A stretch of DNA of 64,000 nt from Candidatus Micrarchaeota archaeon (GCA_016207165.1 JACQQD010000009.1:64001-128000), one strand, 5' to 3'; numbered from the stretch's first letter, positions 3,865 through 48,994 are shown. Notes: a model not told the origin generated them from the letters alone. Numbers and translations are program-made.

Positions 3865-4419
3865 GTGTCTTTAGAAAAAACCATTGCGCGCATTGACGGG
3901 GAATTGTCGGAAAAGGAAAAGCGCCAGGACGTCGTTTTGGCGGATTCGCGGGTCGTGATTCGAAACTGCGCGAAAGCGATCCGGCACCTTCATACGGGCG
4001 ACATGGCGGAGGCCAAGAAAGTCGTCAAGGCGTTGGACGCCGACGTGGCGGCTTTGAAAAAAGTGGCCCAGGACTTTGAGCACATTGCTTCCAGCGCGTA
4101 CCAGGAGTACGTGGAAATCAAGTGCCTGCTTTCGTTGTTGGAGAAAAAAGAGCTTCCGACTCCTGGTGACCTCAAGGTGGATGACCAGAGTTATTTGGCG
4201 GGGTTGGCGGACTGCGTGGGAGAGCTTCGGCGGTCGCTTCAATTGGCGCTGAAGGCCGGAAAGAAAAAAGACGCGGATTACTTGTTTGGAAAAATGAATT
4301 ACATTTACGACCATTTGATGTTGCTGAAGTACTCCAGTTCCCTGGTGGGGCCCTTGAAGCGGAAGCAGGACATGATTCGAAGCCAAGTCGAACAAGCGCG
4401 AAGCGAGCTCTTGCGATAG
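3865..4419 (+). CDS. Translin family (archaeal C3PO-like) RNase
   Basis: QEYVE and YLAGLADCVGELRR motifs, LKRKQD near the C-terminus, all-helical. Confidence 0.85.
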   Translation: MSLEKTIARIDGELSEKEKRQDVVLADSRVVIRNCAKAIRHLHTGDMAEAKKVVKALDADVAALKKVAQDFEHIASSAYQEYVEIKCLLSLLEKKELPTPGDLKVDDQSYLAGLADCVGELRRSLQLALKAGKKKDADYLFGKMNYIYDHLMLLKYSSSLVGPLKRKQDMIRSQVEQARSELLR

Positions 4420-4548
4420 GAATTTGATTCGCGCGCAAGTCGGGGGTTCGGGGAAGCGTAGGACTATAGGGGGCGGAGCCCCCTGTGGTCCGGCAACGAC
4501 ATGATTCGAAGCCAAGTCGAACAAGCGCGAAGCGAGCTTTTGCGTTAG
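4369..4548 (+). repeat. 51-bp direct repeat of the translin gene 3' end (4369-4419 / 4498-4548) around a 78-bp hairpin-containing insert
   Basis: 49/51 identical; hairpin at 4461-4491. Confidence 0.95.
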
Positions 4549-32868: not shown

Positions 32869-33228
32869 ATGGTGGACGTCTGGGGCCGCAACCGGCACTT
32901 GATGGTGGAATTAGCCAAAGTCGGCATGGCGTTGCGCAACGCCACTACGCCGGACCAAAAACAGGGGATGGAGGACCTCATGGTGTACCTTGCCTTGGAG
33001 TTGGAGAAGCGCGCGCGGTTTTCGCATTACTTTGACGCGGAAACCAATAAAGGCAAGCCGGTGAGTTGGTGGACGCGGGCGGCGCTCCAGTTTAAAATCG
33101 GCCACAAGGTGGCGCGGGAGATGCGGGCCGGACGCGCGGACGAGCACTGGATCAAGCAGCGCGTCGAATTCTGGTTGGAAAAAGCCATGCATTACTACGT
33201 CAACGGCAAGATTCCGGTCTTTGATTAG
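32869..33228 (+). CDS. Hypothetical protein
   Basis: ATG 32869 with TTTATA about 25 nt upstream; convergent 4-nt overlap with nadD. Confidence 0.6.
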   Translation: MVDVWGRNRHLMVELAKVGMALRNATTPDQKQGMEDLMVYLALELEKRARFSHYFDAETNKGKPVSWWTRAALQFKIGHKVAREMRAGRADEHWIKQRVEFWLEKAMHYYVNGKIPVFD

Positions 33229-33803
33229 CCGTACAACTTGTTCTTGCGAATGTATTGGCTTACAGCATTGGGTAGCCTTGCCTTGGCGTTTTCCATTTTG
33301 GATTCGTGGATCCATTGCCGTATTTGGGTGCTGGACGCATCCACGCCGCTTGCATCCGCCATGATTTGAATGTGAGAAAATCCGCGCAGTGCCTTGGCTT
33401 TGATGGGGTAGCCCGGCCGTGAAACCACGGCAAAACGCGCGCGTTGGGCCAAGGCTGCAGAGTCCTTCCACCGCGGAAAGTCTGAAAGCAGGTCGGCGCC
33501 GATGACCCACGTGAACGCGTGTTCGGAGTGCGAGTCGGAAAGTTCCTTGAGCGTATCCGTGGTGTACGACGTGCCGCCGCGGCGGATTTCCACGTCGCTG
33601 ACTTTCGCGTTTGGAATGGAGGCTACGGCCAGCTTCGCCATGGCGAGTCGGTGTTGGGGGTTGACGTAGGGCTTTTCTTTTTTGTTGGGGTCGTTGGCCA
33701 CCACCAGCCACACTTCGTCAAACCGCTTGGACAAACGCGTTGCGACGTGGACGTGGCCCATGTGCGGCGGGTTGAACGTGCCACCCAATAGGGCGATGTG
33801 CAT
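33225..33803 (-). CDS. nadD: Nicotinate-nucleotide adenylyltransferase (bacterial NadD type)
   Basis: GGTFNPPHMGH, SYTTDTL, IGAD, W, SSTQIR, YIRKNKLY. Confidence 0.93.
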   Translation of the reverse strand: MHIALLGGTFNPPHMGHVHVATRLSKRFDEVWLVVANDPNKKEKPYVNPQHRLAMAKLAVASIPNAKVSDVEIRRGGTSYTTDTLKELSDSHSEHAFTWVIGADLLSDFPRWKDSAALAQRARFAVVSRPGYPIKAKALRGFSHIQIMADASGVDASSTQIRQWIHESKMENAKARLPNAVSQYIRKNKLYG

Positions 33804-33825
33804 GAGCGGTTTTTGCCGGTAAAGC

Positions 33826-33831
33826 TTTAAA
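33826..33831 (-). promoter_or_regulatory. Archaeal TATA box of leaderless nadD
   Basis: TTTAAA about 23 nt upstream of ATG 33803; no RBS. Confidence 0.6.
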
Positions 33832-33871
33832 CCGCTTCGAAAGGCGGTCGAAGGGGCGTGGGGGCTTGGCG

Positions 33872-34011
33872 TCACTGGACGATGTGGTCCAGGGGTTGCA
33901 TGCGGTAGTTTTCGCTTGGTCGCCCCGGGGAACCCAGGTTCCCCTGGCCCGCCCTGGGCCTCGCCCCTCCTATTGGACGATGTGGTCCAGGGGTTGCATG
34001 CGGTAGTTTTC
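33872..34011 (-). repeat. 42-bp direct repeat of the lrp gene 3' end (33970-34011 / 33872-33913) around a 56-bp hairpin insert
   Basis: 38 bp identical; CAA TAG versus CAG TGA at the end. Confidence 0.95.
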
Positions 34012-34449
34012 TTTGATGACGTTGAGAACGACTTGCGTGTTGGAGCGCTCCACGTTGTCCAGTTTCAGGATTCTCTTGACGATGCGCGACAAGTCGCCTC
34101 GGTGCTTTACTCGGACAATGACCAGCGAATCCGCATCCCCGGTCACGTCGTAGACGGAAACGACTTCCGGAATCTTGGCGATTTCCTTCTGCACGCTCAA
34201 AAGCGCGCCCTTGTGGATGGTCACGCGAATGATGCCCATCAAGTCGTATCCCAGCGCCGGGTAATTCAAGTCCACGCCGAATCCCTGGATGATGCCTTTT
34301 TCTTCCAAGTGCTTGATGTGCTGGATGACGCTGGCCGGCGAGACCCCCAGCGTTGAGGCGATGGATCGGAAGGACTGGCGGCTGTTGGCCTTTAGTTCCA
34401 CCAGGATGCGTTCATCCAGCGGTCTTTTCTCATTCAGTTTTGCCTTCAT
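33970..34449 (-). CDS. Lrp/AsnC family regulator, divergent from glnA
   Basis: LDERILVELKANSRQS HTH and VYDVTGDAD RAM domain. Confidence 0.92.
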   Translation of the reverse strand: MKAKLNEKRPLDERILVELKANSRQSFRSIASTLGVSPASVIQHIKHLEEKGIIQGFGVDLNYPALGYDLMGIIRVTIHKGALLSVQKEIAKIPEVVSVYDVTGDADSLVIVRVKHRGDLSRIVKRILKLDNVERSNTQVVLNVIKENYRMQPLDHIVQ

Positions 34450-34585
34450 TTTAGTCCAAAACTAATACATTTGTTCGTTCTTTATAACCTTTTGTAAACG
34501 TTTGTTCTTTTTTCAACCTGAACGTTTTTATAGGTTTTCGGCATCCAAAGTGCATTCAATTGCCAATGGTGGGTGGTTTTGTTAT

Positions 34586-36025
34586 ATGAGCAAACAGGTG
34601 TTCGTGGAAGTGCCTAAACCGCAGGCGGGAATCGACGTCTTGTCCCGCATGAAGGAAGAACGCATTTCGTGGGTGGACTTGCAGTTCGTGGACCTGGTTG
34701 GCGCGCTTCAGCACATCAGCGTTCCGGCGCACACCCTGGACGAAAAAGACTTTGAAATCGGTGTCGGGAAGCTGGACGGCTCGTCGATCAAGGGTTTCAA
34801 GGAAATTTTTGAATCCGACATGCTTCTGTTGCCCATTGCCGAGACGTACCGCAAGATTCCGTGGGAACAGGATACGGCTAGAATTTTTTGTGGCGTCAAG
34901 GAAGTCTCCGGCTCCCGTTTTTCCAAGGACTCGCGGCATACGGCCGAGAACGCGGAAAAAGTGTTGGCTCAGAACGGGTTTGACACCAGTTACTGGGGTC
35001 CGGAAGCCGAGTTTTTCGTTTTCGACGAGGTGCACTACGACACGACGAACCCCCATCGGGGCCAAGGCTATTCCGTGGGCTCCATTGAGGCCGCGTGGAA
35101 TCCCACCGGAAAAGGGTACCCCATTGGGTTCAAGGGCGGCTATTACCCGGTGCCGCCGGCGGACACGTTGCAGGACCTCCGCCGCCGCATTTCCGACTCC
35201 CTGCAGAATGATTTCGGCATCCGGGTGGAAGCACACCACCACGAGGTCGCCACGGCCGGCCAATGCGAGATCAACATGCGGTTTGACAAGCTCACCTGCA
35301 TGGCCGACAATTTGTTGACGTTCAAGTACGTGGTGAAAAACCTGGCATACCAATCCGGCAAGATTGCCACGTTCATGCCCAAACCCATGTTCGGCGACAA
35401 CGGAAGTGGGATGCACACCAACCAAAGCATGTGGAACGCCGGCAGGAACCAATTCTACGACGCCAACGAGACGTACGCGCAATTGTCGCAGAACGCCATT
35501 TACTACATCGGCGGCCTCGTCGAGCACGGCCGCTCGCTGGCGGCGTTCTGCAATCCCACGACGAACTCGTACCGGAGACTGGTTCCCGGATACGAGGCGC
35601 CCGTGTACTTGGCGTACTCCAAGAGCAACCGGTCGGCATGCATCCGCATTCCGTACTACTTCTCCAACGAAGTCTCCAAACGCTTGGAGTACCGGGCCCC
35701 CGACCCCACGGCCAACCCGTATCTGGCGTTTGCGGCACTGGCGGCCGCGGGCTTGGACGGCATTAAGAAGAAAATCATGCCTCCCGCGCCTGTGGACGCC
35801 AACATTTACCACATGACGGTGGCGGAGCGCCGCCAGCACGGCATCAAGGAACTGCCTGGCGCCTTATTGGAGTCGCTGCACGAATTGGAGTCGGACCGCG
35901 ACTTTTTGAAGCCGATTTTCGCGGACGACTTGGTGGATTCGTACTTGACGCTCAAGTACGCGGAAGCCAACGCCGTTGGAACCCGGCCGCACCCGTATGA
36001 GTTTGACTTGTACTTGAACTCGTAA
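34586..36025 (+). CDS. glnA: Glutamine synthetase type I
   Basis: DGSSI, GPEAEFF, HHHEVA, TFMPKP..GDNGSGMH, NSYRRLVPGYEAP, NRSACIRIP, EYR.PDP. Confidence 0.97.
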   Translation: MSKQVFVEVPKPQAGIDVLSRMKEERISWVDLQFVDLVGALQHISVPAHTLDEKDFEIGVGKLDGSSIKGFKEIFESDMLLLPIAETYRKIPWEQDTARIFCGVKEVSGSRFSKDSRHTAENAEKVLAQNGFDTSYWGPEAEFFVFDEVHYDTTNPHRGQGYSVGSIEAAWNPTGKGYPIGFKGGYYPVPPADTLQDLRRRISDSLQNDFGIRVEAHHHEVATAGQCEINMRFDKLTCMADNLLTFKYVVKNLAYQSGKIATFMPKPMFGDNGSGMHTNQSMWNAGRNQFYDANETYAQLSQNAIYYIGGLVEHGRSLAAFCNPTTNSYRRLVPGYEAPVYLAYSKSNRSACIRIPYYFSNEVSKRLEYRAPDPTANPYLAFAALAAAGLDGIKKKIMPPAPVDANIYHMTVAERRQHGIKELPGALLESLHELESDRDFLKPIFADDLVDSYLTLKYAEANAVGTRPHPYEFDLYLNS

Positions 36026-36187
36026 GCCCCGGGGGAAAGCGTTCCCCCTGGCGCTTACTCCGCCTCGCCCCCTTCGGTTGGGCGTGGCGGATTCAAGGCG
36101 GCCGTGAACGCTTTAAACCGCAACACCCAAAGGAAGGCAATTCGGGCCGGTTCTGCGAAAGCGGGCCGGCTCGTTTATTTCTTATTT
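36022..36187 (+). other. Structured intergenic region with three hairpins; the last is followed by a T-rich run (terminator-like)
   Basis: Stems at 36022-36058, 36059-36091 (cTTCGg loop) and 36143-36173 (GAAA loop, G-T pairs), then TTTATTTCTTATTT. Confidence 0.65.
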
Positions 36188-48175: not shown

Positions 48176-48964
48176 ATGACCAAGTTGGTTTTTACGGTGG
48201 ATGTGGACCGCGATGTGGCGTGGCCCATAAACGGTTCGCATGTGGGCGGCTCAAAGCACCACTTCGAGCCGTCGTTTGAGTCTTCCCAGAAAGGCTTTTT
48301 CGCTCTCCTGGAGTTGGTCAACGAACTTTCGGTGCCTACCACTTTTTTTTTCGAGGCCGCCACGGCCAAACGCATTGGCCCCGTGTGGTTGGGCCACGAA
48401 GTGGCGTGCCACGGGTTTGACCACGAGGATTTCACCGGCAAAAAAACGGGCCGTCCATTGCCTGCGGTAAAGCGCCGCGTCATCCTTCAAAAGGCCAAGA
48501 CGGAGTTGGAGGAGTTGTTTGAAAGCCGGGTTTACGGGTTCCGGGCGCCGTACCTGCATTGGGACGTGGCGTTGTTGGAGATGCTTGGCCAGAACGGTTT
48601 CGCGTACGATTCCTCCGTCGTGGCCGGCGAGTTGGAAAAACCGCCGTTGCCGGAATTGTTTTTGCCGAGTTGGAGGGACCAAAACGCAAAGGCGTTGTCG
48701 GGATACTTGTGGCCGCTCATGGAGGGAAAAAGAGCGGTGGAGGACTACGTGTTGGCCGTGAAACAAGCGGTTTCCCAAAACGAGCCTTACGTGGTGTTGG
48801 CCACGCATTCCTGGCACACGCACGCCTCCGTCGAAAAAGGCGTTTTAAGCGAAGGCCAGGCCAACCGAAACGTGGGCCGCGTCCGCGAACTCTTGGACGC
48901 ATTTTTGGGCTTGGACGGCCTGGAATTCGTTTTGGGAAAGGAGGCCGTGCAGGCAAAGCTTTAA
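48176..48964 (+). CDS. Polysaccharide deacetylase (NodB homology) family protein
   Basis: FTVDVD, TFFF, HEVACHGFDH, GFRAPY, YDSS. Confidence 0.85.
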   Translation: MTKLVFTVDVDRDVAWPINGSHVGGSKHHFEPSFESSQKGFFALLELVNELSVPTTFFFEAATAKRIGPVWLGHEVACHGFDHEDFTGKKTGRPLPAVKRRVILQKAKTELEELFESRVYGFRAPYLHWDVALLEMLGQNGFAYDSSVVAGELEKPPLPELFLPSWRDQNAKALSGYLWPLMEGKRAVEDYVLAVKQAVSQNEPYVVLATHSWHTHASVEKGVLSEGQANRNVGRVRELLDAFLGLDGLEFVLGKEAVQAKL

Positions 48965-48994
48965 GCGGTTTTGCGACCAAATCGGCTATTGCGT

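Follow-up and report, generated by a model that had tools for sequence, protein, structure and literature searches.

A family of small hairpin elements at archaeal gene ends, flanked by a second readable copy of the gene end

A tiny hairpin element sits at the ends of about 30 essential and tRNA genes in the 1.27-Mb genome of a Candidatus Micrarchaeota archaeon, leaving the genes unbroken. At 21 of 30 element loci the gene end is present twice, as a working copy on one side of the element and a displaced copy on the other. The duplication follows a strict polarity, occupied and empty alleles of the same gene occur in different groundwater metagenomes, and related elements are spread across genera of the order. 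The two copies diverge like functional alleles, which points to recombination between lineages and not to one duplication followed by decay. We describe the family starting from the window, a 64,000-nt stretch of DNA comprising positions 64001-128000 of contig 9 (JACQQD010000009.1) in a genome assembly of 12 contigs and 90% completeness (GCA_016207165.1). The features of the window are listed in Table 1.

Table 1. Coordinates of gene ends, hairpin elements and their duplicated copies, counted from the first nucleotide of the window
Feature	Position	Strand	Remarks
Translin-family gene	3865..4419	+	ORF; Pfam Translin 5.1e-8
Translin working gene end, last 17 codons	4369-4419	+	repeat D8
Translin type-A hairpin element, 78-nt insert	4420..4497	+	co-directional with the translin gene
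Translin displaced gene end, 17 codons including stop	4498..4548	+	two differences, both synonymous
Degenerate second copy of the G-rich motif, inverted, just past the lrp displaced copy	33852..33861	+	inverted repeat I3
lrp displaced gene end, 13 codons + TGA	33872..33913	-	runs on into native downstream DNA
lrp type-B hairpin element, 56 nt	33914..33969	-	G-rich 5' arm, then long imperfect hairpin; co-directional with lrp
lrp working gene end, last 13 codons + TAG	33970..34011	-	adjoins the G-rich arm of the element
lrp/asnC-family regulator gene	33970..34449	-	ORF, 159 aa, intact
Type-B element right after glnA, opposite direction	36018..36078	-	hairpin 3' base adjoins the glnA stop codon

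The end of an Lrp/AsnC regulator gene (Pfam AsnC_trans_reg, 1.1e-16; HTH_24, 6.7e-12) is duplicated around a hairpin, with one stop codon exchanged for another. A repeat finder returned an exact direct repeat of 38 nt (33876-33913 and 33974-34011, spacing 98). In the gene frame each copy comprises 42 nt and encodes ENYRMQPLDHIVQ plus a stop, the gene copy ending in CAA TAG and the displaced copy in CAG TGA. The three base differences all lie within the last 6 nt and amount to one synonymous Gln codon and the stop, just as an initial annotation of the window had described. The whole unit spans 136 nt, and its element matches R1, the covariance model built for the type-B family, with 66.7 bits (E 1.7e-12, window 33914-33974). 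The same annotation had bounded the unit by a 12-bp inverted repeat; an inverted repeat is indeed present at 33852-33861 and 33959-33968, in the shorter form of 10 nt with 90% complementarity. Its outer arm, 33852-33861, is not matched by R1 and is possibly what remains of an older element.

Two simpler layouts were considered for the duplicated ends and rejected. Read-through, or in-frame extension of the gene into the second copy, fails on the 56-nt lrp insert, which puts the copy out of frame, and on the translin insert, which contains an in-frame stop. Simple tandem duplication fails on the repeat alone being present twice and the insert not. Orthologues of lrp in sister species are without the element and, at 73-76% amino-acid identity, too diverged to tell the native end. 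A scan with the Lrp protein returned an unrelated 38% match and nothing else in the genome contigs and one relative (74%) in the metagenome contigs, and neither scan brought up population-level alleles.

The translin locus shares the lrp architecture, as the initial annotation had claimed. Here a 51-nt repeat, 49/51 identical according to the repeat finder, surrounds a 78-nt insert that scores 80.3 bits against R2, a second model (window 4421-4497). The RNA of this type-A element folds at -35.5 kcal/mol (z -2.8) on the gene strand and at -23.8 on the opposite strand, 12 kcal/mol worse, and the RNA of type-B copies folds alike on both strands. Flank alignments at lrp and translin score 38-47, against maxima of 10-13 in shuffles. 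A third proposed site, 36026-36072, proved to be a family member and the top match of R1, with 74.6 bits, yet its flanks are not duplicated (score 8; the shuffles reach 11).

Repeats with the same layout are scattered through the genome. Exact 18-mers repeated within 600 nt form 33 pairs, about 20 of them 92-170 nt apart with related inserts in between, and a census with short-query blastn gave 29 clusters. The 21 duplicated loci comprise 20 of 28 census entries and one of two newly examined single sites; eight census entries are without duplication. Element copies are scattered singly over 10 of the 12 contigs, with no array seen. The inserts are 56-145 nt long and without a reading frame of their own, and the direct duplications range from 18 to 59 nt here, with those of relatives reaching 111 nt. 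One further insert, of 542 nt, carries two small genes resembling a hicA/hicB pair and lies at the 3' end of the fibrillarin gene with a 41-nt duplication and no hairpin element.

All copies share one structural plan. The core of 56-80 nt consists of a conserved G-rich 5' arm, which often supplies its own stop codon, followed by a hairpin of 13-17 bp whose stem covaries between copies; both subfamilies, A and B, follow the arm with a long imperfect hairpin. In the type-B consensus, nine of the 13 pairs show compensatory change and 94.3% of cells pair. None of 500 shuffles matched this signal, and it was lost when the pairing partners were slid. Within this genome R1 recovers 13 full copies and one partial copy, and the type-A model gives 18 matches, some of which overlap type-B copies. 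The unit is asymmetric, with the G-rich arm at one end and the hairpin at the other, and single elements are without terminal inverted repeats. Inverted element pairs occur at two tRNA loci only, with both hairpin ends pointing outward. The copies at UPF0147 and V-ATPase D are 100% identical over 56 nt, and the repeats that flank them are the most diverged. Rfam gave no match in the window at the gathering score, and a permissive search of 33700-34200 gave a single one with an E of 8.3. Searches of phage and plasmid collections returned no match to the lrp or translin locus.

The layout reaches beyond the 3' ends of protein genes, to which the initial annotation had confined it. Protein genes are targeted at the 3' end in the cases of Lrp, translin, TFB, ATP-citrate-lyase beta, UPF0147, Tyr/Trp-tRNA synthetase and two small reading frames. 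Targets at the 5' end are V-ATPase D, ThiI, a small glycyl-radical reading frame after nrdD, and one more. The nrdD case was considered as an intragenic insertion; nrdD naturally comprises two reading frames in this lineage, as seen in relatives, which rules this out. Among tRNA genes the 3' ends of tRNA-Ala (twice), tRNA-Pro, tRNA-Arg (twice), tRNA-Ser and one further tRNA are duplicated, together with the 5' end of tRNA-Glu. Duplications of tRNA 3' ends span 18-23 nt and have their start in the T-loop, the classical sublocation of integrase sites.

A single polarity rule holds at all named protein and tRNA loci in this genome. The working gene end lies on the side of the G-rich arm, and the displaced copy runs from the 3' base of the hairpin into the native flank. 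At 3' ends the gene whose working end lies on the arm side runs in the direction of the element, at 5' ends it lies on the opposite strand, and duplication is confined to one orientation of the element. A separate class, in which the 3' base of the hairpin adjoins the 3' end of a gene on the opposite strand, is without duplication; its members are glnA, tRNA-Trp and tRNA-Ala in this genome and three tRNA loci in relatives.

The two copies of a gene end differ almost exclusively at synonymous positions. Across 12 protein loci of this genome (11 with a hairpin element and the one with the 542-nt insert), 41 of 183 aligned codons differ, 35 of them synonymously, four by exchange of one stop for another, and two non-synonymously. 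At 30 loci of relatives we counted 110 synonymous and 44 non-synonymous codon differences, a synonymous share of 0.71. Because choosing the best open frame itself favours synonymy, the control applied the same rule to random changes; it gave a share of 0.28 (sd 0.03, maximum 0.36, 500 runs). If the displaced copy decayed freely and the working copy stayed constrained, about 1.5 non-synonymous changes per synonymous one would be expected, a figure we derive from the fraction of sites that are synonymous. The ratios found, 0.06 in this genome and 0.4 in the relatives, are those of orthologues under purifying selection.

Differences concentrate toward the terminus of the gene, with an identical inner block. 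The initial annotation had noted mismatches only near the stop, and this holds at lrp and translin but not in general. UPF0147 is the extreme case. Its copies differ in 17 of 27 codons, including a switch of serine codon family, without a single amino-acid change, and at 0.76 they are as little identical as UPF0147 is between genera (0.64-0.79). Both copies within one genome carry the amino acids of their lineage, V and R here, I and K in the relative G001. In the two genomes the codon classes form a mosaic between working and displaced copies, and against the empty allele of another relative, G002, each copy differs by 18 nt (hand count), again in a mosaic pattern. Reciprocal crossovers at varying points would yield the mosaic of codon classes, a reading that has to be set against the small numbers involved. 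At the other extreme are fully identical repeats, found at the locus C3 (43 nt), at the small reading frame linked to nrdD (41 nt) and at most tRNA loci (18-23 nt). The differences at C3, like those at lrp, are confined to the junction.

Separately assembled contigs place the lrp unit in real DNA. We compared positions 33000-35000 with contigs assembled from four groundwater metagenome runs. Short contigs from the probable source run (X1) and from a run of another sample (X4) span both lrp junctions, repeat to element and element to repeat, which upholds the structure at contig level. One contig of the probable source run (33941-34003) joins the element to the working copy. In that run the depth over the element is 101-168, compared with 19-26 in the flanks, and further contigs place a near-identical element (two differences in 53) between other flanks; from the raised depth and these contigs we conclude that the lrp element is multi-copy in the community. 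The ends of the genome contigs overlap by 141 nt, a length that we read as the final assembly word and that would exceed the 136-nt lrp unit.

A third run contains the empty site. Apart from exactly 98 missing nt (33875 to 33974), its 1361-nt contig (run X2, depth 7.8) shows no difference. The empty-site lrp allele that it represents carries the displaced-copy version of the gene end, with TGA. Occupied and empty alleles are identical over the 38 inner nt and over 541 nt of gene body. UPF0147 offers a second empty state: the element and a displaced copy of 27 codons are present in this genome and in G001. The tRNA gene found past the displaced copy in G001 lies 5 nt beyond UPF0147 in G002.

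The family extends to other genomes of the order, in line with the claim of a general mechanism as opposed to local slippage: the three sites of the window fit one structure model, and many further cases occur, in this genome and in 10 others. Across 68 genomes R1 makes 81 matches in 11, this one among them. The relatives contribute 27 and 11 matches in two sister species, 19 in another genus, and one or two each in five more genomes of the family and two of another family. Matches of the type-A model, with weaker scores, occur in 30 of the 68 genomes. We examined 52 of the 57 type-B matches of three relatives (G001, G002 and G009), setting aside five that were partial or interrupted. Flank duplication was significant at 42 of the 52 loci and absent from ten, and here, as in the present genome, further cases follow stop codons and carry duplicated gene ends. 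The displaced copy begins between -13 and +2 nt from the 3' end of the model, and the working copy ends from -11 to 182 nt ahead of its 5' end.

Polarity in the relatives could be assessed independently of gene annotation. We chose the coding frame from the pattern of differences alone, ignoring the flanks, and then asked on which side it stayed open for at least 50 codons. Of 17 loci, 13 had the open frame on the arm side alone, one on the hairpin side alone, one on both sides and two on neither. Comparison between genomes reveals both shared and separate histories. At the 5' end of V-ATPase D, this genome and G009 both carry an element, with boundaries that differ and copies that are unrelated (0.65); G001 and G002 have none there. 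The 5' end of one small gene carries elements in two genera (L094 of G001, L107 of G009) that are reciprocal nearest neighbours at 0.92 identity, and just 23 of 61 element copies have their nearest neighbour within their own genome. The pair of neighbours and the independent V-ATPase D copies together imply that some element lineages track a target across genera and that other targets were colonised independently.

The layout leaves the host genes in working order. At 3' ends, the stop of the working copy lies inside the 5' end of the element or a few bases ahead of it. At 5' ends, an upstream frame of 31-42 codons begins at the displaced start, passes through the element read as its reverse complement, and ends -11 to +11 nt from the real start; all nine cases, which come from four genomes, behave this way. 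Within that interval the other two phases have a stop in 6 of 18 cases, and a genome-wide control at the starts of long reading frames found one in 592 of 2175 phases (0.27). Inspection by eye shows the same behaviour in the nrdD-linked case, where the insert supplies a start codon along with a motif resembling a ribosome-binding site, and the frame ends 5 nt ahead of that start codon.

We lean, with modest confidence, toward the view that the insert is a mobile mini-element and that the resident and the carried gene end are two functional alleles joined by recombination within the repeat. The two versions of a gene end would come from different lineages, with the element travelling alongside the end that was functional in its previous host, much as prophages do that integrate into tRNA genes or icd. 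Entry would occur by a crossover inside the homologous segment, either as a Campbell-type insertion of a small element-plus-gene-end unit or as ordinary allelic recombination in which a larger fragment is exchanged and one of the crossovers falls in the displaced copy. Recombination or replication slippage between the copies would let the element exit and restore the working gene. Both ends would stay readable and diverge only synonymously because each is in use whenever its carrier is. Recombination would thus explain why the differences are synonymous only, why the inner block is identical, and how the polarity and the empty allele arise. The family and its structure, the polar duplication, the allele-like divergence, the presence/absence polymorphism and the spread across genera are demonstrated by the data; from them we infer the mobility of the element, within populations and among related species, as well as the crossover route and the direction of transfer.

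Several observations weigh against this view. No enzyme was seen to follow the family, the tyrosine recombinases of the 68 genomes not matching its distribution, and a free double-stranded circle of about 100 bp is physically awkward. Neither lrp nor translin needs a foreign allele; the lrp differences also fit a plain target duplication in which the 5' end of the element supplies the last base and the stop. Identical elements beside diverged repeats, as at UPF0147 and V-ATPase D, require gene conversion among copies or recent insertion. A distant donor would be no simple explanation for the lineage amino acids common to both UPF0147 copies, and the class without duplication, at convergent tRNA genes and glnA, is left unaccounted for. 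A possible complement is that a gene end is first colonised through a long staggered-cut duplication, which fits the young identical repeats, lrp included.

A bolder proposal, which we put forward tentatively and consider somewhat doubtful, is that the elements are protein-free 'gene-end cassettes'. Each lineage would specialise in a single essential gene, whose terminus it would carry as a private recoded copy, and would spread between species and genera by homology-dependent crossover at the 3' base of the hairpin, with both ends under selection since excision must restore the gene. The built-in stops or the translationally coupled upstream frame would keep the host gene expressed.

Other mechanisms could place a repeat on either side of an insert, and the divergence of the copies bears on most of them. 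It is unlikely that the family is a non-autonomous element moved by a transposase with very long and variable staggered cuts (18-111 nt), the target duplications then diverging in place. Such cuts would produce the many perfectly identical repeats (C3, the nrdD-linked frame, most tRNA loci), the precise 3' junction and, with the 5' end of the element supplying them, the junction-only differences at lrp and C3; the outward-facing inverted pairs at two tRNA loci also resemble an inverted-end transposon. But repeats diverging in place, with the displaced copy free to decay, should gather about 1.5 non-synonymous changes for each synonymous one, and we observed 2:35 and 44:110. Single elements moreover have no terminal inverted repeats, duplication is limited to one orientation, identical elements adjoin the most diverged repeats, and this genome shows no DDE_Tnp_1, Y1, TnpB-type, Cas1 or RT domain. 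Allele-like divergence is, on the other hand, what integrative elements produce, so that the loci might be scars of larger viruses or plasmids with a tyrosine integrase that brought a replacement gene end, internal deletion having left fused attachment-site arms as the hairpin. The T-loop start and 18-23 nt length of the tRNA duplications, the hicA/hicB-like insert at the fibrillarin gene and the three tyrosine recombinases of the genome agree with such an origin. We nevertheless regard it as rather improbable: some 30 different targets would all share one conserved 60-nt arm and have lost the interior, element copies are up to 100% identical between loci, the distribution of integrases does not follow the family, and self-comparison of the genome revealed no kilobase-scale element flanked by such repeats.

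Two explanations dispense with mobility. A functional hairpin of the host, such as a terminator, an RNA stabiliser or a protein-binding site, might stall replication or provoke breaks whose repair duplicates the gene end. Elements directly at gene ends in both orientations, their conserved structure and the better fold of type-A RNA on the gene strand suit this idea, which is nonetheless very unlikely. Repair would yield identical copies and not allele-like ones, presence/absence polymorphism takes the whole unit and not the repeat alone, orthologous genes of sister species do without the element, its distribution in the order is patchy and resembles a copy-number pattern, and Rfam offers no match. 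A mixture of strains could in principle have generated the layout as an assembly artefact, given that the genome was assembled from a metagenome and that the element is multi-copy in the community. We give this hardly any credence: separately built contigs of two runs span both junctions, the lrp unit is shorter than the contig-end overlaps, and independently assembled genomes of other species and genera have the same layout.

Strict polarity, together with a junction placed precisely at the 3' base of the hairpin, suggests a specific enzyme activity behind the element. Tyrosine recombinases occur in 33 of the 68 genomes of the order, with a distribution unrelated to element counts, and this genome encodes three. 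A domain search of this 90%-complete genome detected no RVT_1, Y1_Tnp, DDE_Tnp_1, Cas1 or TnpB-type domain. Guide-like pairing between insert and repeat was considered on the basis of the lrp element, which has a 10-nt segment complementary to its own repeat, and was rejected: over 52 loci the own repeat had a mean rank of 0.6 for both complementarity and sense similarity, with no enrichment. A diversity-generating retroelement was likewise rejected, there being no RVT_1 domain and mismatches lying at third codon positions with all bases involved. Cassette or attC arrays beside an integron integrase were not encountered; the copies are single and dispersed.

Elements of this kind matter for both the biology and the annotation of these archaea. 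Small-genome groundwater archaea are generally credited with few mobile elements. If the gene ends were joined by recombination between lineages, the element would be a miniature, enzyme-less counterpart of integrative elements and would directly mark the passage of DNA between species and genera of uncultured archaea. If the elements were instead protein-free cassettes, a target would be recognised through the carried copy of itself, with no enzyme encoded by the element, which could point to an unrecognised recombinase of host or viral origin acting on the hairpin. In practice, duplicated ends and coupled upstream frames disturb gene calling, and the repeats disturb start- and stop-codon annotation and strain-level assembly in these lineages.

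The closest parallels are prophages and integrative elements at gene ends. Phages 21 and e14 reportedly integrate into icd, carrying a replacement end. Like the loci described here, such elements have repeats made of a gene end, an intact gene and ends that differ mostly synonymously; excision restores the gene, and sites in tRNA genes start in the T-loop. The direct repeats with an intact gene, the allele-like divergence and the empty site were all found here. Unlike gene-end prophages, our inserts of 56-145 nt contain no gene or integrase and are smaller by two to three orders of magnitude, occur in about 30 copies per 1.3-Mb genome at about 30 targets, include 5' ends and share a common hairpin module. 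Cis-mobilisable elements (CIMEs) are flanked by attachment sites and lack recombination genes, but they are kilobases long and derive from one integrative element at one site. They are alike in being non-autonomous units between two attachment-like repeats, with excision and integration possible in trans, and unlike in length and in not forming a dispersed family.

Small palindromic elements share size and form with the present family and differ in what they leave behind. MITEs end in terminal inverted repeats and create short duplications of a fixed length; REPINs leave the target unduplicated and rely on a Y1 transposase. MITEs and REP/REPIN-type palindromic elements of prokaryotes, the subject of PMC11602168 and PMC10969869, are, like ours, small, non-coding, hairpin-forming, multi-copy, lineage-specific and located beside genes, and are presumably moved in trans. 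In contrast to MITEs, the elements described here have asymmetric ends and orientation-dependent duplications of 18-111 nt, and no DDE_Tnp_1, Y1_Tnp or TnpB-type domain was found in the genome; in contrast to REP/REPIN elements, duplications are present and no Y1_Tnp (RAYT) was found. Insertion sequences of the IS1634 group, autonomous DDE elements whose target duplications vary from tens to hundreds of bases, resemble our loci in their long direct repeats of variable length. They differ in encoding a DDE enzyme, the search of this genome for DDE_Tnp_1 having been negative, and in showing neither gene-end specificity nor allele-like divergence of the repeats.

Mitochondrial GC clusters and 'byp' elements are G+C-rich hairpins within coding sequence, tolerated in frame or by ribosome hopping. 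As here, short GC-rich hairpins are spread through a small genome and host genes stay expressible; in our family, however, a second gene end is present, and stops brought by the element or a coupled upstream frame take care of translation. A full-text literature search, which covered listings and abstracts, returned no description of such elements, consistent with the suggestion in the initial annotation that the system was undescribed. Set beside these known systems, a tiny hairpin element at gene ends accompanied by a second readable copy of the gene end appears to be an undescribed layout, and there is a real chance that the mechanism behind it is new.

Gene-end duplication in the genome that holds the window is not confined to the hairpin family, as the fibrillarin locus demonstrates. 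The 3' end of the fibrillarin gene is present twice, as 41-nt repeats whose two internal differences are both synonymous. The 542-nt insert between the copies lacks the hairpin element and holds two small genes that, by eye, look like a hicB/hicA toxin-antitoxin pair. At another duplication, on contig C12, a convincing protein or tRNA gene was sought in the surrounding stretch and not found; it may have an unannotated small RNA as its target.

Copies of the hairpin element also adjoin gene starts. At metagenome contig ends from another community member, a copy nearly identical to the lrp element (window 33914-33969, minus strand) adjoins sequence for the beginning of a glutamine amidotransferase resembling PabA, and in the relative G002 an element occupies the 5' end of this same gene (extracted locus L123).

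Other repeats occur in the window and beyond it. Family D13, whose 21-nt motif has a TATA-box-like core and recurs upstream of genes in the window, is probably a promoter element of the host archaeon. Self-comparison of the genome by blastn revealed, outside the window, two more dispersed families of ~95-100 nt, each with at least five copies at 86-100% identity and unrelated to the hairpin element.

Two features concern the wider lineage. In this lineage, with loci in the genome holding the window and in G001, G002 and G007, anaerobic ribonucleotide reductase (nrdD) is divided into one large and one small reading frame, the two overlapping or separated by a few bases; the small frame, of ~45-50 codons, bears the glycyl-radical motif. 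Tyrosine recombinases were not found in 35 of the 68 genomes of the order, so many of these genomes may lack an Xer-type chromosome resolvase, although genome incompleteness may account for part of the pattern.

Coordinates of the features (C, contigs of G000, the genome holding the window; L, extracted loci, with local positions)
Feature	Position	Extract
Fibrillarin locus	C7:21700-22500 (whole extract)	L067, repeats at 64-104 and 647-687
Duplication, no assigned target (18 nt exact)	C12:91732-91880	L030, 383-531
D13 motif (repeat finder)	window 33815-33835, 36101-36121, 48949-48969	
First ~95-100-nt family	C11:82350-82446, C6:70078-70177, C8:84129-84226, C8:138337-138435, C12:36005-36103	
Second ~95-100-nt family	C2:27069-27164, C9:46793-46894, C9:53700-53801, C12:35214-35379	
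nrdD	C12:61187-63580	
nrdD, relative G001		L136
nrdD, relative G002		L137
nrdD, relative G007		L138
Element pair	C6:20590-21524 (whole extract)	L031, pair at ~393-538
Element pair	C8:8644-8780	
Element pair	C1:164692-164849	

Hairpin elements themselves occur in pairs 3' of tRNA genes, arranged head to head with a reversed type B followed by a forward type A. At the paired-element locus of tRNA-Leu, the displaced copy of the gene's 3' end is degenerate. With both hairpin ends pointing outward, these pairs resemble a composite element.
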